A stretch of DNA of 64,000 nucleotides from Acidobacteriota bacterium (GCA_046765915.1 JBKPTH010000123.1:1713-65712), one strand, 5' to 3'. Shown: positions 3,017 through 27,916, counted from the first letter of the stretch. A program made the numbers and translations. The notes: generated from the letters alone by a model not told the origin.

Positions 3017-3517
3017 CTACTTCATCGCGTAGGTCACCGCCAGGGCCAGGGCGTCGAAGGTCGCCATGCGCTCATCCTCGCTCTGGTAGATCTTGCGGCG
3101 CTTCGGCATTTTCGCGGCGAGTTCCGGAAAGGTCTCGGCGAGGTGCTCTGTGATCGAATATTTCGTGGCGCGCCTGTCCAGGGAGGAGAAGCACTCGATG
3201 ACCGCAAGCCGGGGGATGGCGTGTACCGCAATGCCGCGGGTGCGGGCGGTCTCTTGAAGCTTCCCCAAGAGCTTCCGCACCCGCGGCCGGCGGCGCGAGC
3301 CGGGGGCCGCAGAGTCTTCAAGGACGACGACATCCGGCCGGAACTGATCGAGGAGCACCTCAAAGCGGATAACGGCTCCGGAGTTCTTCTCGCCGGATAC
3401 ATGGGCGAGGTCCCAGTCTACTAGGCGAAACGGAGTTTCGAGGACGGCGTAGCCGAAGCCCTTGGTCGTGGGGTCCAAGGCGAAGATGCGAGTGGGGTCG
3501 TTGGGAACCTGTGACAT
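3017..3517 (-). CDS. RuvC-like (RNase H fold) nuclease, paralog 1
   Basis: IFALDPTTKGFGYAVLE (first Asp strand), VVVLED (acidic strand) and C-terminal ATFDALALAVTYA (RuvC DAxDALAxA-like helix). Clearly alignable with 14940..15449. Confidence 0.6.
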   Translation of the reverse strand: MSQVPNDPTRIFALDPTTKGFGYAVLETPFRLVDWDLAHVSGEKNSGAVIRFEVLLDQFRPDVVVLEDSAAPGSRRRPRVRKLLGKLQETARTRGIAVHAIPRLAVIECFSSLDRRATKYSITEHLAETFPELAAKMPKRRKIYQSEDERMATFDALALAVTYAMK

Positions 3518-4047
3518 GGTAAAAGGTTTTGTGTGGTTAGTGATGAACTGCGGTCTACAAAAAGAGCGCGGCTGGGGACCCGCGCGGATGTCGGGAGGAG
3601 TATTGAAAAGCTCGCGCGGATCTCTCTCATGGCGGCTCTCACGCTATCGCCATCGCCGCAAGAAAAAAGACGGCAAAAGTTGCCGCCTTGGCTAAGAAAT
3701 CGGTTTTATGCCTGATGCACCAAGGGTGCTCCGCGCAGGGAAAAATCGAAGCACGCGGCGATGGGCGCCTTTTGTGCACCGTCCGAGGGAAGTACGCTCT
3801 TCCCCATGTCGAATGCCGCCCACAATGCGGGGCTTGAAGAGGTCCCGCTAGAACACCGGGACGGAGACATCGCGGCGCCTAAAAACACGCCTGCGAGTTT
3901 GGGCTACGCTTACAAAGCCGAAGACGTGAAACCGCGTACATTGCCACAGGAGACAATAACGGCCTGCCTTGGCCTGGGGCGGATTTTGCGCGAGATACGT
4001 GCACGTATGTTGCGCGAGGGGTACAATATGCCTAAAGAAGAACTTCC

Positions 4048-5808
4048 ATGAGTAACCCACAGGTTACGGCAGAGGAGATAGTCCGTAAAATAGAGAGCGG
4101 CACGTACCGCGACTCGTATCTCGTATACAACCGCAAGAGCACGGATGAGCCCGATAACCAGAAAAATTCGATCAAGTATCAGAAGTCGCAGAACGCGCTT
4201 TTTGCATACCGCGAGCATCTGCCGGTAGCTTCCCTGACGCTCGAAGGATTCTCGCGGGACGGTATCGTCTCGGAGCGTCACTCCGGCTTCAAGGAAGATA
4301 CGGCGCTTCAATTCGGCGAGGGCAACACCGTCCAATTCCGCATCGAGCGGCCGAAGTTCCATCGCCTCGTGCAGTGGTTGGGGATGGGCTACTTCAAGGG
4401 CGCCATCTTCCTTTGCTGGGATAGGGCCAGTCGGAACCGCGGCGACGATACGATCCTCAGGAAGCTCATGAAGCAAGGCGTAGACATACGCTTTGTCTCG
4501 ACCACCTACGAAAAGTCCAGCTCCGGCGAACTCCACATGGACATCGACGGGATGTTCGCCGCGCACTACGCCCGCGTGACTGGCGAGAAGATCGCCATGA
4601 CGCTCCGCAGTAAGCGTGACCAAGGCGTCTGCACCTACCGGGCGCCCGCGGGCTACCTGAACCAGGGCCAGATGGAGCACAAGCCGATCGACCCGGAACG
4701 GGCCCCCGTCGTGAAGAAGCTCTTCGAGCTGTACGCTACCGGGCGCTGGAGCTTGATCGGTCTCACCCGTTGGGTGGTAGACCAGGGGTTTACCATGCCT
4801 CCGGTGCGTCGCCGGAGAACGCAGGCGGAAGTTCTAGCCGAAGAGGAAGATGATACCCGCGCAGCGATTGAGCCCGTCTCTCGGCCGCCGACGTATACCA
4901 ACATCCACAAGATACTCGTAAACCGCTTCTACGTAGGCGAGGTGCGCGGCAATGGCGGGACGTGGATAAAGAGCACGAGCCATGAGGCCCTGATCCCGGA
5001 GGATCTCTTCAACCGGGTCCAGGCGGAACTCCGAAAGAAGAACAAGAGCGCTCACTATGCGAACGTGCTCGACTACCCGCTCCGGGCGATGGTCCGCTGC
5101 GGCCTCTGCGGACGAGTCTACACTCCCTACCCGAAGAAGGGAATCATATACTACGGCGCGCGGTGCAGCGCGGGCTGCGCCAACCCGAAGCGGAGCTTCA
5201 ATTTCAAGTTCATTACCGACAAGATCGGGGACCGGATCGCCAAGCTATCCTTCACGGACGAGGAGCTTGAGGAGCTGGACGCTCAGACCAGCACAGACAT
5301 TGCGCTCTTGGAGGCAAAGCGCCTTCAGGAGCTAGAGGCTAATGAACGGAAGAAAAAGAGAATCCGCGAGGACTTGGCCTACCTGAACGCCAACCGCCTT
5401 ACGCTCTTGAAGACTGGCGCCTATACGCCGGAGACGATTGTCGCCGAGGAGACAAGGCTTAGCCTGGAACTCTCCACCTTAGAGAATTTGGAGAAGGCAT
5501 CCGATATCGCGATGCAGGAGACGGTCAGAGACGTGGTGAAACTTTCCGAACTCTTAAGAGACGTTTATTTCTATTACCAAAACGCCGATCCGCAGGAAAA
5601 AGAGGCAATTACCAAGGAGGTCTTTTCCGAACTCACTGTCCAAGGAGAAACGTTGGATTACAAATGCACGCGAGGCTTTCAACCTCTGGCAAGCCGTTTT
5701 GTCTCTCAGGGTGGACCTAAGGCTTGGCTTTCCGAACTGCTATTACAACGAGAGTATATAGCAGCCAGCATACAGAGGTTGGCTCCCTTCGTGGCAAATG
5801 CCGACTAG
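4048..5808 (+). CDS. Large serine recombinase
   Basis: N-terminal resolvase-type motif YLVYNRKSTDE (catalytic Ser). Recombinase domain, zinc-ribbon VRCGLCGRVYTP...YYGARCSAGC, then a long coiled-coil-like region. Confidence 0.9.
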   Translation: MSNPQVTAEEIVRKIESGTYRDSYLVYNRKSTDEPDNQKNSIKYQKSQNALFAYREHLPVASLTLEGFSRDGIVSERHSGFKEDTALQFGEGNTVQFRIERPKFHRLVQWLGMGYFKGAIFLCWDRASRNRGDDTILRKLMKQGVDIRFVSTTYEKSSSGELHMDIDGMFAAHYARVTGEKIAMTLRSKRDQGVCTYRAPAGYLNQGQMEHKPIDPERAPVVKKLFELYATGRWSLIGLTRWVVDQGFTMPPVRRRRTQAEVLAEEEDDTRAAIEPVSRPPTYTNIHKILVNRFYVGEVRGNGGTWIKSTSHEALIPEDLFNRVQAELRKKNKSAHYANVLDYPLRAMVRCGLCGRVYTPYPKKGIIYYGARCSAGCANPKRSFNFKFITDKIGDRIAKLSFTDEELEELDAQTSTDIALLEAKRLQELEANERKKKRIREDLAYLNANRLTLLKTGAYTPETIVAEETRLSLELSTLENLEKASDIAMQETVRDVVKLSELLRDVYFYYQNADPQEKEAITKEVFSELTVQGETLDYKCTRGFQPLASRFVSQGGPKAWLSELLLQREYIAASIQRLAPFVANAD

Positions 5809-10225: not shown

Positions 10226-11233
10226 TCACTCCTCCGGCAGTATGCGGACAACCTCTCTCCAGCCGTTCACCCACTCGTGAGTGAGAATATCCCCGCTGCC
10301 AAGCGCCTCTCGATCGGTGAAAAGGAAGAGGCGCGCGCCGCCTACAGGAAGCGCCCTGTACGCGTCCACGAGGTGCTCTACCCGCTCGCTACTCGTCGTC
10401 ACGGTCAGGACCCTGAAGTTCGGAATCCCGAGGTGCGCTCTGTGAACCCTCTGCCGCCAGGTCTCTTGGTAGGCGAGGAGCTTGCGGAAGAAGCTCGTCT
10501 GCGCGAGCCCGTGCCGCGCGACCGGCATCGTGCCTCGGTCGGCTTCGAGGAAGAAAAATGCGTGCCGCCGGTTCTCCGGCGCGTCCTCGAAGCGAAGGCC
10601 GAAGACCTTATCCGGCTCCACTCCCAGGTGGTAGGGCTTCCCGCCCCAGCGAACCTCGACCTGCCAGCGGAAAGGAAGGCATAGGCGGCGAGTGGATTCG
10701 GGTGCTCCCGCGAGCACCTCCTCGGGCGGAATGAATCGCACTCCTTCTCGGCTTCGACAAGCGACCTCGAAGGCCACCATGATCTCGGCGACTGCGAGGG
10801 TGTGGTGCAGGAAAACCCGCGAGACGTTGCGTTTCTTTGTGTCCCAGCGGATACCGACCCGCCTCACGGTTTTCTCGGCCTCGAGGACCTCGGCGCCGCG
10901 TTTCCCCAAGGCGTAGACGAGCGGCTCGGACCCGCGGGCGTACCAATCGAGCTGCATGGCCGGGCGGTCAATGTAGCCGTGGTGGAAGAGGAGCTGCAGG
11001 CGCCGAAGGATCACCTGAAGACTCCCTCCCAAAAGGGCTGCGAGGTGTGTGGAGCGAAGCAACCGATGTCTGTGAACGGCGCGTAGGATTTCAAGGTCGC
11101 GGGGCGTAAGCACCATGCGGCGCACTTGGGCGCGCTCGAAGCGCGGCCGGCGGGTCTGAGGGTGAGACATAGGAAGCCAGAGTAATGGCCGACAGGCACT
11201 CAGGAAAGGCGGCGCCATCAGCCGCCAAGCCAA
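10226..11233 (-). CDS. Replication-relaxation family protein (putative plasmid relaxase/replication protein)
   Basis: LTPRDLEILRAVHRHRLLRSTHLAALL...ILRRLQLLFHHGYIDR (wHTH), HTLAVAEIMVAF and FFFLEADRGTM blocks match the family pattern. Alternative start at 11170. Overlaps the stop of the upstream ATPase gene. Confidence 0.75.
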   Translation of the reverse strand: MAWRLMAPPFLSACRPLLWLPMSHPQTRRPRFERAQVRRMVLTPRDLEILRAVHRHRLLRSTHLAALLGGSLQVILRRLQLLFHHGYIDRPAMQLDWYARGSEPLVYALGKRGAEVLEAEKTVRRVGIRWDTKKRNVSRVFLHHTLAVAEIMVAFEVACRSREGVRFIPPEEVLAGAPESTRRLCLPFRWQVEVRWGGKPYHLGVEPDKVFGLRFEDAPENRRHAFFFLEADRGTMPVARHGLAQTSFFRKLLAYQETWRQRVHRAHLGIPNFRVLTVTTSSERVEHLVDAYRALPVGGARLFLFTDREALGSGDILTHEWVNGWREVVRILPEE

Positions 11234-12495
11234 CGCTCAATCTTCGTCTCCACCTCCTCCCTTGGCCGGCCATACTGTTCCCGGGAGCGGCGGATGACTG
11301 CCTCCCGCCTGCCGCTCGCTGTGCCATGGATGGGCGGCAAGGTCCGCCCCCGGAAAGGCTCCCGCATCCGGCTCTGATCCAGGAGCCGGGCGTAGAACTC
11401 GTACTTCTCCAGGGAGACGAGATTCCCCATCTTCACGTCGCCGGCGAGCTCGTCCTCCAAGATGCGCGCGTCGGCCTGCCCCACCCGGAAGGCGATGAGG
11501 TTGCCGACATTGCCGAATACGCTTTGCCGGATCTCGTCGGTGAGCTGGTCTAGGTACTGATGGGCGATCACAAGGGAGAGGCCGTATTTCCTCGCCTCGG
11601 CGAGAATCGAGGCCAGGGCGTCGGTTGCGAAGCTTTGGAACTCGTCGATGTAGAGGTAGAAGGGAGTGCGGGGAGAGTCCGGCAAGACAGCTCGCTGCAT
11701 CGCCGTCCATTGGAACTGCGAGAGAAGAAGGGCGCCGAGGAGCCGGGAGTGGTCTTCGCCCACGACGCCCTTCGCGAGGTCGGCGATCATGATCCGGCTG
11801 CGGTCCATGAGGAATGCCGCGTCGAAGCGGCATCGCGTTTGGCCCAGGATGTTCCGGATGGGGGCATTCCCGAAGAGGCGCCCGACCTTGTTCTGAAGTG
11901 GGGCAATCGCCTCAAGCCGGAAGCGGCGCTCATATCCGGTGTACTCGTCCCGCCAGAAGGCGCGGACGACCGGATCCCGGATCTTCGCGGTCACGCGCTC
12001 CCGGAAGGCATCGTCTGAAAGAAGCCGCGGCAGTGCCAGGATCGTGAGCCCTCTGTCCAAGAGGGCTGCCAAGGCGTGCCCCAGGATGTATTCGAGCCGC
12101 GGCCCCCAGCTCGATCCCCAGATACCCCGAAAGGCCGAGAGCACCCCGGAGACCACGAGGTGCGCGGCATCAGGCGGCACCTTGGGGAGGAGGTTCAGGC
12201 CCACCGGGCGCGCAAGGTCGCCGGGATTGAAGTGCAGCACCTCGCCCGTCCTCCCCTTCGGAATCGCATCCAAGACCTCCCGGGCGAGGTCTCCATGAGG
12301 ATCAAGGAGACCCACACCTCGCCCGGCGTAGAGGTCTTGGAGGATGAGGTTCCGAAGAAGCGTGCTCTTGCCGAGTCCCGTCTTGCCGACGATATAGAGG
12401 TGCTGCGCCCGGTCCTCGGGGTGAAGCAAAACAAGCTTCGGCTCATCCGAAACCCAAAACGTGCGGGTGCCGATCGCGATAGGAGTCTGGTCCAT
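11218..12495 (-). CDS. Soluble VirD4/TraD/HerA-FtsK-type P-loop ATPase (type IV coupling protein-like), 425 aa
   Basis: Walker A GKTGLGKST, Walker B-like FYLYIDEF, and KYGLSLVIAHQYLDQL. No TM segment. Paralog of 21093..23306. Confidence 0.8.
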   Translation of the reverse strand: MDQTPIAIGTRTFWVSDEPKLVLLHPEDRAQHLYIVGKTGLGKSTLLRNLILQDLYAGRGVGLLDPHGDLAREVLDAIPKGRTGEVLHFNPGDLARPVGLNLLPKVPPDAAHLVVSGVLSAFRGIWGSSWGPRLEYILGHALAALLDRGLTILALPRLLSDDAFRERVTAKIRDPVVRAFWRDEYTGYERRFRLEAIAPLQNKVGRLFGNAPIRNILGQTRCRFDAAFLMDRSRIMIADLAKGVVGEDHSRLLGALLLSQFQWTAMQRAVLPDSPRTPFYLYIDEFQSFATDALASILAEARKYGLSLVIAHQYLDQLTDEIRQSVFGNVGNLIAFRVGQADARILEDELAGDVKMGNLVSLEKYEFYARLLDQSRMREPFRGRTLPPIHGTASGRREAVIRRSREQYGRPREEVETKIERWLGG

Positions 12496-13025: not shown

Positions 13026-13766
13026 TTATTGCTTTTTTGTCGTAATATCCAGGTCTAATATCCCGTGCTGCGCAAGACATTCATGATATTTTTTAAGAAT
13101 CGCAGGATCAGACAAGTCAATCACGTTGCGACTCGCTTCTGCTGCGTCTGCGCCATGCAGCACCTGGTTACTTTCCTTATCTACATACTCACCATGCTCA
13201 CCAACTAATACCTTCCTGCCATCGTGAAGGCGAATCGTCCGGCAATCCGCCTCCTGTATTTTTTGGTGCAATTCTTTTTCTAGCCGACCTATTTGTTCGA
13301 GCCGTAACTTTGTTAGGGCGGCAAGGGTGACTTTCCATTCTTCTTCAAGGGATTCGTCCGGCACGGACAGCAAGGCCGGTGTATCCGCCTGAAGCTTAGG
13401 CATGATATTGTTTTTTGCTATTTTCCCCAGTATCGCCTCGACATGGACATTGTCGCGATCAAACTTATCTTCCACAGTCTGTTTCTCTACCACCAGGAAT
13501 AATCCGACAAATGCAATCATACCGGGAGTTATTGTGTGTCCCTGTGCGGGGATCTCGAAATAATTGCGAATGGCTCTTGAGAGGTCCGGATTGATAGGTG
13601 CAACATCGGCAACAATTTTATGGACAGCATTGACGAGGAATTTCGCTTGCTGATCTCTGCTTAAGTCATCAAACTGATTCAAGGTTGTTGCGGAAGCCCG
13701 AGAAGACAGCAAGACCGATATCATAGTAAGAAATGCTGTCGCTAAGTCGATGCGGGTAGTCGGCAT
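13026..13766 (-). CDS. Hypothetical secreted protein (246 aa)
   Basis: N-terminal signal-like segment LATAFLTMISVLLSSRASA. AT-richer island. No recognisable domain. Confidence 0.55.
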   Translation of the reverse strand: MPTTRIDLATAFLTMISVLLSSRASATTLNQFDDLSRDQQAKFLVNAVHKIVADVAPINPDLSRAIRNYFEIPAQGHTITPGMIAFVGLFLVVEKQTVEDKFDRDNVHVEAILGKIAKNNIMPKLQADTPALLSVPDESLEEEWKVTLAALTKLRLEQIGRLEKELHQKIQEADCRTIRLHDGRKVLVGEHGEYVDKESNQVLHGADAAEASRNVIDLSDPAILKKYHECLAQHGILDLDITTKKQ

Positions 13767-16521: not shown

Positions 16522-16550
16522 CCCCAGGATTCACCTCCTGGGGTCTTTTT
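16522..16550 (+). terminator. Rho-independent terminator-like hairpin, copy B of the repeated motif
   Basis: ccccagga-ttcacc-tcctgggg followed by tcttttt, downstream of the sigma-like gene. Confidence 0.55.
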
Positions 16551-16937
16551 CTAGAGTGTCGCGGAATCTGTGCGCCTGGATGGGAGCCAACAGCGGTGAA
16601 AATGGATCTTCTGCCAAAGTTCTCGGCATCCTCCTCGTCATGCAGATCGCGCTCTATCGACTCGCCAGGGCGGAGTCGCCGGAGGAGAGCTTGGCAGGCG
16701 ATCCTGGGGGGGACAGTCTCGCAGCCCTTCAGTAGGGAAACGGTGAAGATGTAGGGAAGAGAGAAATAGACGACTCGCCATGTCTCTATTTGCCTCAGAG
16801 ACTCCAGTACTGCTAAGCTCTAACACCATCGAGTACGGTGCCTTAGCGCAAGGATCTCTTATCGTGGCACCCAGGATCAGAGGCACCCTCATGACAAGGA
16901 ATCGCTTCAATCCCCACAAAGCCAAAAGGAGAAAAGA

Positions 16938-18161
16938 GTGCTTCTGAATAAGGAATTGGATGAGTTTCTCGAACAGAAGCAGGGAGAGAGGGATGAAGTT
17001 TTGCAGCCTTCTAGCCTCCGGAATTTTCCGTGGCCAAGCGAAGATCCTTTGAATATCCCTCAACCCTCGCGTATCGCCTCGGACGATGATTACCTACTAC
17101 TTACGGCAGCGGCTACGGCGGTTCCATTCGATGCGGAGCGCTTTGATCAGAGTACACGGCAACTCGATCTTCCTGGAAGAGTCCACTATCTTCTCACCGG
17201 AGCGAAGTTTCAATTTAACGGCGTCGAAGCTGTCAGATCAGAGCAACTGTGGAAAGACCGCATCGCGCTGGCAGTGGCAAGGGGCCAGCCAATCTTCATA
17301 GTCTATCCCCTCTTCTGCAAGATTGGCAACTGGGCAAAGCAGATGAATAACATTGCGCCTAATGCGGGGGATGAGGCCACTATTATCTTCTTTGGACATC
17401 TAAATAATCTGGTGAAGAGAATCTACCCGCCCGGGCTACATATCGCAGTAGTGTCAGATGCACAACTATACAACTCGGCCTTTCAAAACCCAGAAGTAGA
17501 GGTGGCTACATATATGGAGGGTGTGAAGGATCTAATCCGCAAGCATGAGGCGGACCAATATATTCTATTCTATAATTACGTAGACATTCTCCGCGAGTTC
17601 TCAGCCGAATATATGAAAGCGCATCAGCACTTCCATCGCACAATTTGCGACGAGCCCAAGAAGGTAATGAGCATGATCAGCAGCGCTAGGACTCTCTTTG
17701 AGAGCGTTAAGGCCAGTATCAACACCCGGAAGTATGAGATGTCCTACCGTGATCATCTGGAACTATTCAGTTCTCTGGAAGACCGAAACAATGCCTTCTT
17801 CAAAATCATCGAGAATATGACCAAGCTCGCTTTTGAGGAGGTCTTGGCTATCCGACTTGCCTGTGGCTATCTCAATGTCTTTGATAGAGTTTGGCCTGAG
17901 CACGTTCGCGCGACGTGCCATAAGGGCAAGAAGGATGGCAGGGCAGTAATTGGACTCCGGCCGTATCCAGAGTATTATGGGAGCTCGAAGCTATTGCCTT
18001 ACCATGGCGTGCCGCTTATTCATAAGCCAAATAATAGAACTAGGCTGGATATCGTTCCGGAGGTTCTACTAAGGGGCCGGCCAGAATTGACACGGATTCT
18101 TACCGCAACCGACGTGACGTATTTCTACGATGGCACATCCTCTACACCACAAGCCGCATAA
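16938..18161 (+). CDS. PvcA/IsnA/Dit1-family isonitrile-synthase-like protein (divergent)
   Basis: Blocks PIFIVYPLFCKIG, DEATIIFFGHLNNLVKRIYPPGLHIAVVSDAQLYN, WPEHVRATCHKGKK..IGL and LLPYHGVPLI parallel the family blocks I recall (FPxKS, YPPG..xxSDG, FPxxxRLSIH, TPWH). GTG start with AAAGGAGAAAAGA upstream. Confidence 0.5.
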   Translation: MLLNKELDEFLEQKQGERDEVLQPSSLRNFPWPSEDPLNIPQPSRIASDDDYLLLTAAATAVPFDAERFDQSTRQLDLPGRVHYLLTGAKFQFNGVEAVRSEQLWKDRIALAVARGQPIFIVYPLFCKIGNWAKQMNNIAPNAGDEATIIFFGHLNNLVKRIYPPGLHIAVVSDAQLYNSAFQNPEVEVATYMEGVKDLIRKHEADQYILFYNYVDILREFSAEYMKAHQHFHRTICDEPKKVMSMISSARTLFESVKASINTRKYEMSYRDHLELFSSLEDRNNAFFKIIENMTKLAFEEVLAIRLACGYLNVFDRVWPEHVRATCHKGKKDGRAVIGLRPYPEYYGSSKLLPYHGVPLIHKPNNRTRLDIVPEVLLRGRPELTRILTATDVTYFYDGTSSTPQAA

Positions 18162-18179
18162 TGGAGGTTCCAAGCTAAT

Positions 18180-19151
18180 ATGAAAGCTTTAGGTGTCTTT
18201 GAAGCCGGTGCTCCTGAGAATCTTCGAATAATTGAGTTGCCGGACCCTCATCCGGCGGCTAGCGAGGTTGTGATAAAGACCGCCTTTGCAGGCGTGAATT
18301 ATGGTGATGTCATTCGACGCAAGCGCGGTCTCTTCCCAAAGGACAAAGAGTCGCCGTATGTTCTTGGATTCGAGGGAGCAGGTATCGTCTATCAAGCAGG
18401 AGAAGGAACCTCACTCAAAGAGGGTGAGCGTGTTGCCTTTTTTGTAGAAAGCGGCGGGTATGCGCAGTTAGTGCGAGTGAATGAAGCCTACGTCTCCCGG
18501 ATACCCGAATCAGTGAGCCTGGAGGTGGCAGCCGGTGCGACATGCGTAGGCACAACTGCATGGCACATTCTGAACCTCGCGGCTCTCAAACCTGGGTGCA
18601 AAGTCATAGTTCATGGAGGCGCTGGTGGTGTCGGTTCGGCGTTACTTCAGTTCGGTCGCGAGTTTGGGCTACGACAGCTTGCTACAGTCGGATCATCCGA
18701 GGAGAAGGCAAGGTATGCAAAAGGGCTTGGGGCTGATGAGGTAGTCGTGAGATCTCGTGAGAATTTTGCGGCACGCGCCATGGAGTTTGGTGCTGAAACA
18801 GGAGTCGACGCCATATTCGATTGCATCGGTGCCGAGGTCGTGGAGGACAATTTGAAGGTTCTGAAATCCGGGGGAATGTTAGTGTACTATGGATCTACTT
18901 CTGGACATCCGAACTTCCCTGGCGGCACGGTGCTCATGAAGGGCCTGCGAATCCAAGGCTTCGTTATCTTTGATGTAATGTACGATAAATCGCGATGGAG
19001 GAAGGGGGCCGATGCTGTTTTCGAAGCGCTTGCAAGCAAGAAATATTCAATCAACATAGAGAAAGTTGTACCTATGGAGAATGCGCGCGAGGCTCACGAG
19101 CTACTTGAGGCTCGACAAGTGATCGGAAAAGTCGTAGTCGATATGTCGTGA
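18180..19151 (+). CDS. NADPH:quinone oxidoreductase / zinc-type alcohol dehydrogenase superfamily (MDR) protein
   Basis: EVVIKTAFAGVNYGDVIRRKG, Rossmann motif VHGGAGGVGSALLQ and C-terminal GKVVV are typical QOR features. Confidence 0.85.
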   Translation: MKALGVFEAGAPENLRIIELPDPHPAASEVVIKTAFAGVNYGDVIRRKRGLFPKDKESPYVLGFEGAGIVYQAGEGTSLKEGERVAFFVESGGYAQLVRVNEAYVSRIPESVSLEVAAGATCVGTTAWHILNLAALKPGCKVIVHGGAGGVGSALLQFGREFGLRQLATVGSSEEKARYAKGLGADEVVVRSRENFAARAMEFGAETGVDAIFDCIGAEVVEDNLKVLKSGGMLVYYGSTSGHPNFPGGTVLMKGLRIQGFVIFDVMYDKSRWRKGADAVFEALASKKYSINIEKVVPMENAREAHELLEARQVIGKVVVDMS

Positions 19152-19176
19152 TTTTACCCGTGGTTGAGCAAGCTCA

Positions 19177-20100
19177 ATGGTGACTAGGGCCGGCAGTGGT
19201 GACCTTCCGCTTCGGCCAGCGGTGTGGGAAAAGTCTTGGAGTCATTATAAGATACTCGCCTCGTGTTCACCGCTTGCGTTCGATCAGAAAGTGCTTCAGG
19301 TGCCCCCCGAGCAACGCGAGGTACTTCGCTCGACATGTTCGGTATTCGTAGATGTCTTACGTGCCACAACAACTTTGGTAGCGGTGGCTGCGGCAGGATG
19401 CCAGGGCATCTTCGTTGATATCAAGCCGAAGGACAGAAAGTTTCGATTCGTGCCGCCATTTGAGCGCGGAGAGTGGGTCTACGGCGGCGAGCAATATGGA
19501 AAGCCAATCGAAGGTGAGACTGTAACGGGAGAGCTTGTCGCTGGGGTTATCGACAACTCGCCCATGTCTGTTCGGCCTGAAGACCTCGCCGGCAAATCGC
19601 TCCGGTTCTTTAGTACGAATGGCGCGCGCGCCTTGGGAGCGTTGGCGTCCACCGGATTCGCATCGGTGCATGCGGTAAGTTTTGCTAATATCGAGGCTAC
19701 TATACAGTCAATTATGAATCGCGCGCCGGAGCGTATGTGGTTCACATGCGGCGGCTTCTACGGATGTGCTTCGCTTGAGGATAGTGTTGCCGCAGGTATG
19801 GCTATTAATCTGAGCATCGCTAGTGGTTTTGCGGATCTTGACGAGATCGACGATGAAGCGATGGCTATGCTGATTCAGGCACAACACTTTATGGAGAACG
19901 GCATATTGCAGGCCGATCGTCTCCAAAGAGTGCTCGCCAATAAGCAAGTAGCGCGCCTGATCGGAGCATACGAACATGCGGCAGATATCCCTGCTTGCGT
20001 GTCTGGAATCGGTCTGCCAGATGGGTTGTGGCTCGCGATGGAGTCTACTGTTTTAGCTGTCGAACGCACAGGGATTCCATTCTTAGTAGTTGAGAATTGA
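19177..20100 (+). CDS. 2-phosphosulfolactate phosphatase (ComB) family protein
   Basis: VFVDVLRATTTLVAVAAAG and GGEQ...VIDNSP match the ComB family signature (DVLRAxTT, GGE, NSP). Confidence 0.6.
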   Translation: MVTRAGSGDLPLRPAVWEKSWSHYKILASCSPLAFDQKVLQVPPEQREVLRSTCSVFVDVLRATTTLVAVAAAGCQGIFVDIKPKDRKFRFVPPFERGEWVYGGEQYGKPIEGETVTGELVAGVIDNSPMSVRPEDLAGKSLRFFSTNGARALGALASTGFASVHAVSFANIEATIQSIMNRAPERMWFTCGGFYGCASLEDSVAAGMAINLSIASGFADLDEIDDEAMAMLIQAQHFMENGILQADRLQRVLANKQVARLIGAYEHAADIPACVSGIGLPDGLWLAMESTVLAVERTGIPFLVVEN

Positions 20101-24195: not shown

Positions 24196-25899
24196 ATGGA
24201 GCGGAAGATCGATCCGGCGTCGGATCAGAAGCCCATCGGCATCTGGATTCGGGTCTCGACCGAAGACCAAGCCCAGGGCGAGAGCCCCAAGCATCACGAG
24301 ATGCGCGCCCGAAGCTACGCCGACTCGCGCGGTTGGAAGGTCGCCGAGGTCTACCACCTGGAAGGCGTCTCCGGGAAATCCGTCATGGAGCACCCGGAGA
24401 CGAAGCGGATGATGATTGACGTGCGCCGCAAGCGGATCACGGGCCTCATCTTCTCGAAGCTCGCGAGACTCGCGCGGAACACGAAGGAGCTACTGGAGTT
24501 TTCGGAGTACTTCCGGGAGCACGGGGCGGATCTCGTCTCGCTGCAGGAGTCGATCGACACCTCGACCCCGCACGGCCGCCTCTTCTACACCATGATCGCG
24601 GCCATGGCCGAGTGGGAGCGGGAGGAGATCGCCTCCCGGGTCGCGGCTTCCGTGCCTATCCGGGCGCGGCTCGGGAAGCCGATTTCCAGTCCGCCGCCCC
24701 TCGGGTACCGCTGGGTAGACAAGCGGATGGAGGTCCATCCCGAGGAGGCTCCGCTGCGGCGCTTGATCTACGATCTCTTCAAGGAGCACAAGCGCGTGAA
24801 GACGGTGGCGAAGCTCCTGAATGACGCCGGCTACCGGAGCCGCAAGGGCAGGCCTTTCCAGGGCCTAACCGTGGAGCGGCTCCTTACGGACCCGAGCGCC
24901 AAGGGCCTCCGGAGGGCCAACTACACAAAGATGGTGAAGGGAAGGCCGGTCCTGAAGCCCGAGTCGGAATGGGTCCTCGTGCCCTGTCCCGCAATCATCT
25001 CCGAGGAGCTTTGGGAGGAGTGCAATGCTCTCCTCCAGGCCCGCAAAGCTTCCCGGAAGCCCATTACGAAGCGGGCCGTCTACGTCTTCGCGGGCTACGT
25101 CTACTGCGCCTGCGGGGAGAAGATGTACGTGCGCTCCAACACCCCGAAATACGTCTGCATGAGCTGCCGCAGGAAGGTCGCGATCAGGGACTTGGATCAT
25201 GCTTTCCAGAGCGAGCTGGAGCGCTTCACCCTCTCTCCCAAGGCCATCGCCGCCTGGCTCGCCCAAGGGACCGAGGCCGTATCAGCGCAGGAGGAACGCC
25301 TCGGCGCCCTACTCCGGGAGCGGGAGCGCCTCGGGAAGGAAGCCGACAAGCTCTACCGCCTCTACCAGGAGGATGCCCTCTCGGTCGATGGCTTCCGGGA
25401 GCGTCACCGGCCCCTCGAAGAACGCCTCGCGGGGCTCGGTATGGAGACCTCCAGCCTCCAGGGGGAGATCGACTTCCTCAAAGTGAAAACGGTCATGCAG
25501 GATGAGATCCTCGGCCACACCCGGGAGCTTGCCCAAAACTGGCTTACCATGGACCTCCAAGGGAAGCGGACTGTGGTCGAGGGCCTCCTCAAACGCATCG
25601 TGGTCCACCCGGACGCCGTGGACATCGTCTTCGCGAACCTCCCGCTCCTCTCTGAGATAATGGCAAATGGGCCACCTGGTCCCGCCGCTACGACCCTCCG
25701 GCGATTTCTGTTTTCTCCGAGGAGCGCGGCTTCCTGGGCTACACTCCCCCGCCATGAGAAACCGAGTCGCCGCCGCTTTCTGCCTCCTCGCTTTCTGGGC
25801 CCCCGCCGCGTTCGCCGTCGAGGGCAAATGGACTCCCGAGCAGGTGCTCGAGCACGATCCGCAATGGCTGCGCGCGTTGGGTCTCGAGATCCCTCCTGA
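24196..25899 (+). CDS. Large serine recombinase (3' end probably extended artificially across the element junction)
   Basis: IGIWIRVSTEDQ (catalytic Ser), LIFSKLARLARN, recombinase domain, zinc ribbon YVYCACGEKMY...YVCMSCRRK, coiled coil. The last ~75 codons are Arg/Pro-rich and overlap the next gene. Confidence 0.9.
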   Translation: MERKIDPASDQKPIGIWIRVSTEDQAQGESPKHHEMRARSYADSRGWKVAEVYHLEGVSGKSVMEHPETKRMMIDVRRKRITGLIFSKLARLARNTKELLEFSEYFREHGADLVSLQESIDTSTPHGRLFYTMIAAMAEWEREEIASRVAASVPIRARLGKPISSPPPLGYRWVDKRMEVHPEEAPLRRLIYDLFKEHKRVKTVAKLLNDAGYRSRKGRPFQGLTVERLLTDPSAKGLRRANYTKMVKGRPVLKPESEWVLVPCPAIISEELWEECNALLQARKASRKPITKRAVYVFAGYVYCACGEKMYVRSNTPKYVCMSCRRKVAIRDLDHAFQSELERFTLSPKAIAAWLAQGTEAVSAQEERLGALLRERERLGKEADKLYRLYQEDALSVDGFRERHRPLEERLAGLGMETSSLQGEIDFLKVKTVMQDEILGHTRELAQNWLTMDLQGKRTVVEGLLKRIVVHPDAVDIVFANLPLLSEIMANGPPGPAATTLRRFLFSPRSAASWATLPRHEKPSRRRFLPPRFLGPRRVRRRGQMDSRAGARARSAMAARVGSRDPS

Positions 25900-27916
25900 G
25901 AAGCTGTGGAGCCGCGAGGGCGGCGGCCTGCTGGAGGCGGCGGTGAAGATCGAGGGCTGCTCGGCCGGCTTCATCTCGCCCCAGGGGCTGCTGATCACCA
26001 ACCACCACTGCGCCTTCAGCATCCTGCAGCAGCACTCGACGCCCGAGCGGGACCTCATCACCCACGGCTTCCTCGCCCGCACGGCGGCCGAGGAGCTGCC
26101 CGGCGCGGGAACCCACGCGGCCCTCCCCCACCGCACCACCGACGTCACCGCCGAGGTGGAGGCCGCCGTGCCGGCGGGAGCGGACGACCTGGCGCGCTTC
26201 CGCGCCGTCGAGCGCAAGCAGAAGGAGCTGGTGGCGGCCTGCGAGGAGGCCGCGCACCGCCGGTGCGATGTCGCCGCCTTCGACGGCGGCCTGCGCTACG
26301 TGCTGGTGGAGAACCTCGAGTTTCCCGACGTGCGGCTGGTCTACGCGCCGCCGCGCGCCGTGGGCGAATACGGCGGCGAGATCGACAACTGGAGCTGGCC
26401 GCGCCACACCGGCGACTTCGCCCTGCTGCGGGTCTACGCCGGCCCGGACGGCCAGCCCGCCGAGAAAGCGGACGCCAACGTCCCCTACCATCCTCGGCAC
26501 TGGTTTCCGGTGTCGCCGCGCGGAGCCGAGCCGGACGGCTTCGTCTTCGTCCCCGGCTACCCGAGCACCCCCACCTATCGCTCCTACACCGAAGCCGAGA
26601 TACGCGAGCGGGCGGAGCTCTACTTCCCGCGCCGCGCCGAGCTGTACCGCGCCTGGATCGATCTCATGGAGGCCGCCGCCGCCAAGGACGAAGCCGCCCG
26701 CATCGCGCTCGCGGACCGCTTGAAGATCCTCGCCAACCGGCAGAAGAACGCCCGCGGCCAGGTGGACGGCATCCGCCGCGGCCGCATCCTGGAGGGCAAG
26801 GCAGCCGCCGAGCGGGACGTCCTGGCGTGGGCCGCGAAACGTCCCGAGCAGGCGGCCGCGGTGGCCGCTCGTGACGAGCTGGCGAGGCTCGTCGCCGAGC
26901 GCCGGCGCACCTGGGACCGCGACTTCCTGCTCGATCAGGCGAAGAACGGTCCCAAGCCTCTCGAGCTGGCGCTCATTCTCGTCCGCTGGGCGGACGAGAA
27001 GGCCAAGCCGGATCTCGAACGCGAGCCGGACTACCAGGAGCGCAACCGCCAGCGCCTGGCCGAGCGGCTGGAGCGCGAGCAGAAGCGCATGCACCCGCCG
27101 GCCGAGGCCGCTCTCCTCACCGACGTCCTCACCCGCCTCGCCAATCTTCCGCAGGCGAGCCGCGTGCCGGCCGTCGAGGCCGTGCTGGGCGGCGCCCGCG
27201 AGAGCGGCGCCATCCGCGCCAGGGTGGACGATCTCCTCGCGAAGTCACGGGTGACCGACGCCGCCGAGCGCAAGCGGATGTTCGACGAGAGCGCCGAGCA
27301 GCTCCGCGCGCGGCGCGATCCGCTCCTCGATCTGGCCTTCGCCCTGGACCGCGAGCTGCTGGACCTCAAAGAACGGGACGACCGCTTCAAGGGTGCGGTC
27401 TCGCGCCTGCGTCCCCGCTGGCAGCGGGCCGTCATCGCGCACGCCGGCCGGCCGGTGGCGCCGGACGCCAACGGCACGCTGCGCGTGAGCTTCGCCAAGG
27501 TACAGGGCTACAGCCCCCGCGACGGCGAGTGGATGTTGCCGCAGACGACCGTCGGCGGAGTCGTGCGGAAGGACACCGGAGAGGAGCCTTTCAACGCGCC
27601 GCGGGAGCTGCTCGCCGCCGCGCCCAAGGCGCCGGAGAGCCGCTGGGCGGACGGGCGCCTGAAGGACGTCCCGGTCAACTTCCTCGCCGACGCCGACACC
27701 ACCGGCGGCAACTCCGGCAGCCCCGTCCTCAACGGCCGGGGAGAGCTGGTGGGAGTCAACTTCGATCGCGTCTGGGAGAACGTGGCCAACGACTTCGGCT
27801 ACAACCCGGAGGTGGCGCGCAACGTCAGCGTCGACGTCCGCTACGCGCTCTGGGTGCTCGAGACGCTCTACGGCGAGGCGGGCCGCGGGCTGCTGGTGGA
27901 GATGGGGATTCGATAA
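25754..27916 (+). CDS. S46 family dipeptidyl-peptidase (DPP7/DPP11-like)
   Basis: Signal peptide MRNRVAAAFCLLAFWAPAAFA. GCSAGFISPQGLLITNHHC (catalytic His block) and GGNSGSPVLNGRGELVGVNFD (catalytic Ser block). Confidence 0.85.
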   Translation: MRNRVAAAFCLLAFWAPAAFAVEGKWTPEQVLEHDPQWLRALGLEIPPEKLWSREGGGLLEAAVKIEGCSAGFISPQGLLITNHHCAFSILQQHSTPERDLITHGFLARTAAEELPGAGTHAALPHRTTDVTAEVEAAVPAGADDLARFRAVERKQKELVAACEEAAHRRCDVAAFDGGLRYVLVENLEFPDVRLVYAPPRAVGEYGGEIDNWSWPRHTGDFALLRVYAGPDGQPAEKADANVPYHPRHWFPVSPRGAEPDGFVFVPGYPSTPTYRSYTEAEIRERAELYFPRRAELYRAWIDLMEAAAAKDEAARIALADRLKILANRQKNARGQVDGIRRGRILEGKAAAERDVLAWAAKRPEQAAAVAARDELARLVAERRRTWDRDFLLDQAKNGPKPLELALILVRWADEKAKPDLEREPDYQERNRQRLAERLEREQKRMHPPAEAALLTDVLTRLANLPQASRVPAVEAVLGGARESGAIRARVDDLLAKSRVTDAAERKRMFDESAEQLRARRDPLLDLAFALDRELLDLKERDDRFKGAVSRLRPRWQRAVIAHAGRPVAPDANGTLRVSFAKVQGYSPRDGEWMLPQTTVGGVVRKDTGEEPFNAPRELLAAAPKAPESRWADGRLKDVPVNFLADADTTGGNSGSPVLNGRGELVGVNFDRVWENVANDFGYNPEVARNVSVDVRYALWVLETLYGEAGRGLLVEMGIR

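Follow-up and report, generated by a model that had tools for sequence, protein, structure and literature searches.

The 64,000-nucleotide stretch of a soil Acidobacteriota bacterium genome analysed here (GCA_046765915.1 JBKPTH010000123.1:1713-65712; hereafter the window) carries a cluster of three plus-strand genes at positions 16,938 to 20,100, predicted to encode a DIT1/PvcA-fold enzyme (gene 1), a quinone oxidoreductase (QOR)-type reductase of the medium-chain dehydrogenase/reductase (MDR) class (gene 2), and a ComB-family phosphatase (gene 3) (Table 1). Until now, a single reaction and a single kind of partner, an Fe(II)/2-oxoglutarate-dependent (Fe/2OG) dioxygenase or a cytochrome P450, have been associated with PvcA/IsnA-type isonitrile synthases. 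The cluster described here is non-canonical and is centred on an isonitrile-synthase-like enzyme that belongs to a deep, rare branch of the fold, with an altered active site and a co-evolving NAD(P)H reductase, and its cassette has spread via mobile elements over bacterial phyla and into an archaeon. A first-pass annotation made from the sequence had described three tightly spaced genes in an AT-richer island between GC-rich mobility genes, with family motifs in genes 1 and 3. The coordinates of the open reading frames (ORFs) agree exactly, with gaps of 18 nt between genes 1 and 2 and of 25 nt between genes 2 and 3, and every motif that the annotation quoted is there (IYPPGLHIAVVSD, WPEHVRATCH and LLPYHGV in gene 1; DVLRATTT, GGE and DNSP in gene 3). 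GC content is 0.49-0.53 across the trio at 17-20 kb versus 0.67-0.69 at 21-24 kb and at least 0.70 in the chromosome, and genes for a type IV coupling protein (T4CP), a Replic_Relax protein and recombinases lie on the flanks. The three family assignments made earlier are borne out by Pfam and, for gene 1, by fold matches as well.

The GC content at third codon positions (GC3) is 0.50-0.55 in the trio, compared with 0.82-0.84 in the backbone of the surrounding element and 0.91 in a chromosomal gene, and by this measure the cassette is foreign even to its carrier. Its left edge lies near 16927, since homology to L038, one of two metagenomic contigs (with L043) that bear the same element family, is regained only 10 nt before the start of gene 1. 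All three cassette genes are under purifying selection, the ratio of nonsynonymous to synonymous substitution rates (dN/dS) being 0.064 for gene 1 (L043 versus L038), 0.08-0.09 for the MDR gene (window versus L043 and versus L038), and 0.12 for the ComB gene (window versus L043). A promoter scan upstream of gene 1 gave nothing exceeding shuffled expectation, and an Rfam scan of the operon region and eight related loci returned neither a riboswitch nor a known leader. A PADLOC-DB v2 scan of the trio and two neighbours returned no defence model, the sole match at E<=0.1 being a spurious methyltransferase (E 0.038). No description of a cluster combining DIT1 and MDR genes with a short-chain dehydrogenase/reductase (SDR) or ComB gene was found in the literature.

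Table 1. Features of the cassette and its surroundings, with positions counted from the first nucleotide of the window.
Feature	Position	Strand	Remarks
Large serine recombinase	4048-5808	+	flank of element region
TPR-CHAT protein, 916 aa	6887-9637	-	CHAT 121.5 bits, TPR_12 136 bits; GC3 0.51
Replic_Relax	10226-11233	-	PF13814 86 bits; overlaps T4CP-like gene
T4CP-like ATPase 1, 425 aa	11218-12495	-	PF10412 30.4 bits
246-aa ORF	13026-13766	-	lowest GC of the region, 0.47; no Pfam, NCBIfam or PADLOC match
Sigma-70 region-2 protein, 164 aa	15892-16386	+	PF04542 32.2 bits; directly upstream of operon
Terminator-like hairpin	16522-16543	+	consensus scan; between sigma ORF and operon
Gene 1, DIT1/PvcA-fold enzyme (predicted), 407 aa	16938-18161	+	GTG start; AGGAG 7-11 nt upstream
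Gene 2, QOR-type MDR reductase (predicted), 323 aa	18180-19151	+	
Gene 3, ComB-family phosphatase (predicted), 307 aa	19177-20100	+	
Membrane protein, 234 aa	20370-21074	+	no Pfam, NCBIfam or PADLOC match; GC3 0.82
T4CP-like ATPase 2, 737 aa	21093-23306	+	PF10412 TrwB_AAD_bind 51 bits, TraG-D_C
orf190, 190 aa	23511-24083	+	follows T4CP; no Pfam match
Large serine recombinase, right end	24196-25899	+	Resolvase 111.6 bits, Recombinase 64.9 bits

Gene 1 scores 55.1 bits against the Pfam profile PF05141 (DIT1_PvcA; cut-off 26.4, E 1e-14, profile positions 4-248 of 273). Its AlphaFold2 model (pLDDT 90.8, pTM 0.89) has PvcA (3E59; E 1.3e-13, TM 0.77 normalised to the target, the highest value reached) and PIsnA (9DH4, 9DHM) as its only significant Foldseek matches, which together span E values of 1e-11 to 1e-13 at 15-20% sequence identity; the matches that follow have E values above 4e-3. 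The motifs PG, D-x-x-x-Y, R-x-(S/T)-x-H-x-x-x-K and P-(W/Y)-H-G are common to gene 1 and PvcA/IsnA/PIsnA, and the proteins probably follow the same general logic of joining an amine and a ketose phosphate. Gene 1 differs from PvcA/IsnA in being about 80 residues longer, in its dedicated MDR partner (and an SDR elsewhere) in place of the PvcB/IsnB dioxygenase, and in being carried by a mobile element, where PvcA/IsnA genes belong to a chromosomal biosynthetic cluster. The divergence of gene 1, which the first-pass annotation had remarked on, is considerable: against the PvcA equivalog model NF045653 it reaches 33.7 bits where the cut-off is 600, and to judge from this score it is not a PvcA equivalog. 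The subclade to which it belongs is small. Among 5.8 billion clusters, a word-indexed search recovered 53 relatives; 53 was likewise the number of members at E<=1e-30, fragments included, when 1.84 billion representatives were searched exhaustively with a profile, and beyond these the scores fall sharply, to about 100 bits or less, for other DIT1 clades. Cultured Streptomyces sp. CJ_13 and SAJ15 have homologues too (P0046, P0049). Only 9 of 185,579 species-representative genomes carry the gene, and these scatter over Flavobacteriaceae, Bacteroidota, Chlorobiales, Coriobacteriia, Bifidobacteriaceae, Acidobacteriota and Methanobacteriota; no homologue was found in viral contigs, a phage collection or PLSDB plasmids.

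The conserved positions of gene 1 show both retention and systematic replacement. Other DIT1 clades have 22 positions conserved to at least 80%; the gene 1 subfamily keeps 13 of them, including the PG motif, Y178, Y192, K332, P354 and G357, and R324, H328 and H356 are likewise invariant across it. D174 is also retained. The other nine of the 22 are systematically swapped (Gly to N94, Pro to C127, Lys to I129, Gly to A175, Tyr to V302, and others), and in the R-x-T-x-H motif the Val or Ile has become an invariant cysteine, C327. Every one of the 26 aligned subfamily members has both C127 (window positions 17316-17318) and C327 (17916-17918), which sit inside the two strongest superfamily motifs, near the conserved H328 and H356, where they may form a new metal or redox site. 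We considered whether the lysine of the FPxK loop had been kept through a one-residue register shift, as K128, and rejected this possibility, as K128 occurs in only half of the subfamily and the invariant lysine is K134. Several further positions split 13:12 or 13:13 between two residues and define two subclades matching two gene orders, DIT1-MDR as in the window and MDR-DIT1-SDR.

Gene 2 contains the Pfam domains ADH_N, ADH_zinc_N and ADH_zinc_N_2, scores 222 bits against TIGR02824 (PIG3/QOR subfamily), under the cut-off of 296.8, and has Mycobacterium tuberculosis Qor (4RVU, 145 bits) as its closest PDB entry. It resembles QOR-type MDRs such as 1QOR, 4RVU and the 2-haloacrylate reductase 1WLY in its domain architecture, in being zinc-less, and in its GxGxxG NADPH motif, and it would likely reduce an activated C=C or C=N bond. 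Unlike other QOR-type MDRs, it belongs to a separate rare clade of just 32 clusters at E<=1e-40, almost never seen except beside a DIT1-like gene; at least nine of these clusters are on contigs that coincide with those of DIT1 matches, to judge from their equal lengths. The MDR partners from Coriobacteriia and from an archaeon reach 259-299 bits against the window protein, whereas the best characterised QOR reaches 145. Gene 2 is thus predicted to be a zinc-less QOR-type NAD(P)H reductase of a rare clade dedicated to partnership with the DIT1-like enzyme.

The association of these genes was examined in about 26 distinct loci, those of identical sequence being taken once. The DIT1-like gene adjoins an MDR gene in 16, the two overlapping or closely spaced, and these loci span Acidobacteriota, Actinomycetota, Bacteroidota, Chlorobiales and Methanobacteriota. 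The full order DIT1-MDR-ComB, whose absence from other genomes would have counted against the first-pass annotation, is found in the window, L043 and L042, and in L015 the trio is joined by an SDR gene (MDR-ComB-DIT1-SDR). L038 has DIT1-MDR with a ComB remnant, and L008, L012 and L039 have DIT1-MDR; the order is SDR-DIT1-MDR in L001, MDR-DIT1-SDR in L003, L010 and L022, MDR-DIT1-SDR-Amidohydro_2 in L005, DIT1-SDR-MDR in L021, and DIT1-MDR-abhydrolase-HAD in L029. DIT1-SDR pairs in L020 and L033 lie at contig ends. A fusion protein of about 660 aa, with an N-terminal HAD phosphatase joined to the DIT1-like enzyme, occurs twice (P0030 in L007, 1195-3180, and P0054); in L007 an alpha/beta-hydrolase gene precedes it and SDR and MDR genes follow (abhydrolase-HAD::DIT1-SDR-MDR). 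The commonest third gene is the SDR, which the window lacks, whereas ComB is present in four loci, HAD in two, and a phosphatase is absent from most. The recurrence of the same gene sets in unrelated genomes argues that the arrangement is far beyond chance, and the obligate core of the cassette is the DIT1-like enzyme with its dedicated MDR, to which SDR, ComB or HAD phosphatase, alpha/beta-hydrolase and amidohydrolase are added interchangeably. An Fe/2OG dioxygenase or P450 partner is absent from 25 of the approximately 26 loci, only L006 having a TauD-family fragment, and none is encoded among the window ORFs of 12-26 kb, as the first-pass annotation had stated. Its further proposal, a non-canonical pathway in which a reductase and a phosphatase take over from the usual tailoring enzymes, is partly supported: the pathway is non-canonical and the reductase forms a dedicated core with the DIT1-like enzyme, but the phosphatase is only a variable accessory, and the isonitrile or formamide that the annotation envisaged is a putative product.

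Gene 3 scores 94.2 bits against PF04029 (ComB; cut-off 26.4) and matches 2YYV (E 3e-9) and 1VR0 (E 6e-8) in the PDB. With ComB, the 2-phosphosulfolactate phosphatase of the coenzyme M pathway represented by these structures, it shares the signatures DxxRATT, GGE, NSP, TNG and ED, and D59, R62, E105, N127-S128-P129, N148 and E201-D202 are invariant in its subclade; it is probably a Mg-dependent phosphomonoesterase. The best score against the NCBIfam ComB equivalogs is 75 bits, for a model with a cut-off of 323, and all of their cut-offs are at least 175. The subclade comprises about 30 clusters of proteins of about 300 aa, which are some 60-80 aa longer than ComB and have a conserved C-terminal extension. 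Coenzyme M genes are absent around gene 3, whose neighbours are the DIT1-like, MDR and conjugation genes, and unlike coenzyme M ComB the subclade is found only in two mobile cargo cassettes. Its orthologues in L043, L042 and L015 are 81%, 59% and 31% identical. In L038 only about the first 100 nt of the ComB gene are left (10281-10382, corresponding to window positions 19195-19280, with 81% nucleotide identity) and about 1.07 kb has been lost, so that the gene there was probably deleted. The DIT1 and MDR genes of L038 are still 96% identical to those of L043, with dN/dS of 0.06-0.17, indicating that the two-gene core persists without ComB.

The second cassette that contains the gene 3 subclade is also uncharacterised and encodes an HbpS-like protein, the ComB-like protein (45-48% identity), an FAD amine oxidase, an FCD/GntR regulator, and a YjgF/RidA-like protein. 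It was found in Caulobacter ginsengisoli (L040/L044, 6491-10718), Nocardia barduliensis (L045) and Kribbella turkmenica (L041/L046), cultured strains in which it is experimentally accessible. Like the window cassette it includes an amine-processing enzyme, with the oxidase and RidA-like protein in place of the DIT1-like enzyme and MDR, and the ComB-like protein thus behaves as a module common to amine-processing cassettes. The Caulobacter copy lies directly upstream of homologues of the window T4CP (30% identity) and orf190 (42%), the same position that the cassette occupies in the window; the site upstream of the T4CP gene therefore behaves as a cargo slot.

The inference that the cluster is horizontally mobile, made in the first-pass annotation, agrees with the mobility genes around it, its foreign GC3, and its recurrence in distant genomes. 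Replic_Relax, T4CP and recombinase genes flank the cassette, its composition is foreign, and L038 and L043 hold syntenic copies of the element at 68-90% identity. Relative to the window, L043 is 78% identical in DIT1, 78% in MDR, 76% in the membrane protein, 79% in the T4CP, 86% in orf190 and, for a fragment, 90% in the right-end recombinase, which is 41% identical to a recombinase of L008. The values for L038 are 78% in DIT1, 79% in MDR, 68% in the membrane protein, 71% in a helix-turn-helix (HTH) protein, 62% in orf246 and 85% in the sigma-70 region-2 protein. Homologues of the Replic_Relax/T4CP-like pair (10226-12495) adjoin the cassette in L001 and L005, and mobility genes lie within 8 kb of it in the window, L001, L003, L005, L006, L008, L015 (TrwC relaxase, T4CP, ArdC and an orphan C5 methylase), L029 (TrwC), L039 and L043. 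The cassette is therefore cargo of an integrative conjugative or mobilisable element in a Thermoanaerobaculia chromosome. Across its loci it almost invariably travels on conjugative or integrative elements, often with ECF-sigma/kinase-TPR or TPR-CHAT genes as neighbours.

We propose, with a probability of roughly 0.55, that the trio is a functional operon and foreign mobile cargo, one of a rare, horizontally scattered family of DIT1-like and MDR cassettes with modular accessories, and that it makes a small molecule. The functional, mobile two-enzyme core with its modular accessories is established; its chemistry, including which reaction comes first and what the substrate and product are, is what we infer. 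In the most economical mechanism, the DIT1-like enzyme would condense a primary amine with the carbonyl of a ribulose-5-phosphate-type ketose phosphate, the C-N chemistry that is the hallmark of the family, with an outcome modified by the altered active site of the subclade (invariant C127, C327 and K134). The MDR would use NAD(P)H to reduce an unsaturated or imine-type intermediate or product, and the ComB-family protein would strip a phosphate ester from the precursor or product, in a step that may precede or follow reduction. In other versions of the cassette this dephosphorylation would fall to a HAD phosphatase, and its fusion to the DIT1-like enzyme argues that both enzymes handle one metabolite. 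Since phosphate is eliminated in the canonical reaction, the requirement for a phosphatase and the altered active site together suggest a phosphorylated amine precursor or a phosphate-retaining product, and the outcome would be reductive and non-isonitrile. The end product would be a small, non-canonical metabolite (of isonitrile, formamide or N-alkyl type) of advantage to the element or to the host that carries it, and expression would probably be controlled by element-borne sigma factors or sensors. Once characterised, the product would reveal either a reductive branch of isonitrile/formamide biochemistry or a reaction new to the fold, and a cassette of two to four genes is readily testable by heterologous expression.

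Several observations weigh against this proposal. The alignment of gene 1 with the PvcA equivalog model, besides its low score, is limited to residues 103-244, and the altered FPxK loop (C127, I129) and the change to A175 may mean a chemistry fundamentally different from isonitrile formation. The canonical reaction eliminates the phosphate of ribulose-5-phosphate, so that a phosphatase would be unnecessary, and ComB is in fact dispensable in L038 and missing from most cassettes. Neither an exporter, a riboswitch nor a further biosynthetic gene that points to the product was found at the cassette. Finally, eight loci have the DIT1-like gene without an MDR or SDR gene; these include L006, several Acidobacteria loci beside TPR regulators, and L024, where it is next to a polysaccharide cluster and a KAP NTPase gene.

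One alternative is a canonical isonitrile pathway, in which gene 1 uses Tyr or Trp and ribulose-5-phosphate, and the MDR and ComB-family proteins merely tailor a metal-binding or antibiotic isonitrile. Membership in PF05141, the PvcA/PIsnA fold, the naming of homologues as L-tyrosine/L-tryptophan isonitrile synthases in the source databases, and the TauD-family fragment beside the relative in L006 speak for such a pathway, but the distance of gene 1 from PvcA in both equivalog score and identity, the systematic replacement of superfamily positions with the gain of invariant cysteines, and the near-universal lack of a dioxygenase or P450 make it improbable. In addition, yeast Dit1, a eukaryotic member of the same Pfam family that forms N-formyl-tyrosine and is paired with the P450 Dit2, without a reductase or phosphatase partner, is reported not to be an isocyanide synthase and apparently releases no isonitrile (PMC7345447); the fold, then, need not release one. 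The enzymes might instead form a catabolic, salvage or detoxification module that degrades or neutralises an exogenous phospho-amine or reactive carbonyl compound. The accessory hydrolases differ between loci, and the gene 3 subclade is elsewhere partnered with a catabolic-looking set of FAD amine oxidase, YjgF/RidA-like protein and GntR/FCD regulator. QOR-type MDRs, moreover, often detoxify enones and quinones. We nevertheless consider such a module very unlikely: the window cassette has no transporter or catabolic regulator, no catabolic member of the DIT1/PvcA family is known, and a short biosynthetic route better explains why the MDR is dedicated and co-evolving and why a HAD fusion exists. 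That the genes are unrelated or decaying and lie together on a mobile element by chance, as the loss of ComB in L038 and the loci with a DIT1-like gene alone might suggest, is effectively refuted by co-occurrence and selection, since gene sets recur across phyla, dN/dS is 0.06-0.12, and MDR and ComB both come from rare clades that track the cassette.

A different role, not raised in the first-pass annotation, is suggested by the genes around the cassettes and by their carriage on mobile elements. Sensors such as an extracytoplasmic function (ECF) sigma factor with a Ser/Thr-kinase-TPR protein, TPR-CHAT or STAND proteins might switch on the cassette as the output module of a conflict system, in which the product, or the use-up of a phospho-amine or nucleotide-like metabolite, blocks phage, host defence or a competitor. 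We regard this as a tentative possibility that is on balance unlikely. Conflict-type genes recur near the cassettes, yet they are non-orthologous: an ECF sigma gene and a large kinase-TPR-type gene lie divergently upstream of the DIT1-like gene in L038 and L043 and are also present in L039; TPR-CHAT genes occur in the window and, non-orthologous, beside the trio in L042; and L006 has caspase and nSTAND-CHAT genes, L003 DUF2326/MC6/CTD10, L005 and L021 restriction-modification genes, L015 the ArdC and orphan methylase genes, and L024 the KAP NTPase, with HNH among the recurrent neighbours. The patchy, rare distribution of gene 1, the use of the slot upstream of the T4CP gene by alternative ComB-containing cassettes, and the deoxynucleoside kinase (dNK) or thymidylate kinase genes near the L038 and L039 cassettes fit the same idea. 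On the other hand, none of the three proteins matches PADLOC, gene 1 is absent from viral contigs, phages and sequenced plasmids, and no literature link was found between isonitrile synthases and anti-phage or mobile-element functions. The window itself lacks the ECF sigma/kinase pair, and proximity to defence genes is expected for any cargo of a mobile element. In its most specific form, which we think rather doubtful, the DIT1-like/MDR pair with its SDR, ComB and HAD modules would be the effector of an unrecognised class of mobile-element chemical conflict, built on a remodelled Cys/Cys/His active site. Such an effector, under the control of ECF-sigma/kinase-TPR or CHAT-type sensors, might, though we consider it unlikely, act on a phospho-amine or nucleotide-like metabolite to give a reduced C-N compound serving in phage defence, in counter-defence at conjugative entry, or in antagonism. 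A conflict role, drawn entirely from neighbourhood, is compatible with the proposed biosynthetic function. Were this rather unlikely role to prove correct, it would raise the importance of the cassette and add a small-molecule module to the defence and counter-defence repertoire of mobile elements.

There are weak hints of a sugar or nucleotide substrate in the polysaccharide context of L024, the dNK or thymidylate kinase genes of L038 and L039, and the surroundings of the L042 cassette. In L042, a gene that starts 97 bp upstream of the DIT1-like gene and is transcribed away from it (3106-5526, minus strand) encodes an 806-aa fusion of a NUDIX domain and a class-III aminotransferase, which may hint at a nucleotide-linked or amino-sugar substrate. 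The same locus has radical SAM and AIRS-family genes nearby.

The remaining genes of the region, at about 4-25.9 kb, include those for an ORF6N protein and the HTH protein. A gene for an S46-like peptidase (25667-27916) is up to 86% identical to genes of Thermoanaerobaculia (Acidobacteriota) metagenome-assembled genomes, which identifies the host, and the start of this conserved chromosomal gene puts the element's right-hand end at about 25.67 kb. The C-terminal 75 or so residues of the right-end recombinase are of low complexity and overlap the start of the peptidase gene, and the junction of element and chromosome probably lies inside this overlap. A scan for a tRNA gene as integration site found none. 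Genes for serine recombinases and for T4CP-like ATPases each occur twice, the first T4CP-like protein being the shorter, which points to two elements, in tandem or nested. The sigma-70 region-2 protein is a backbone gene product and a candidate regulator of the operon. The membrane protein downstream of gene 3 was considered as an exporter for the cassette and rejected, as in both GC3 and synteny it goes with the conjugation backbone. The TPR-CHAT protein is separate low-GC foreign cargo on the same element, and we regard the 246-aa ORF at 13026-13766, of which none of the retrieved loci holds a homologue, as another orphan cargo gene. The orf190 product, 34% identical to its homologue in the archaeal locus L003, is always encoded 3' of the T4CP gene and is a conserved, unnamed component of this type of element.

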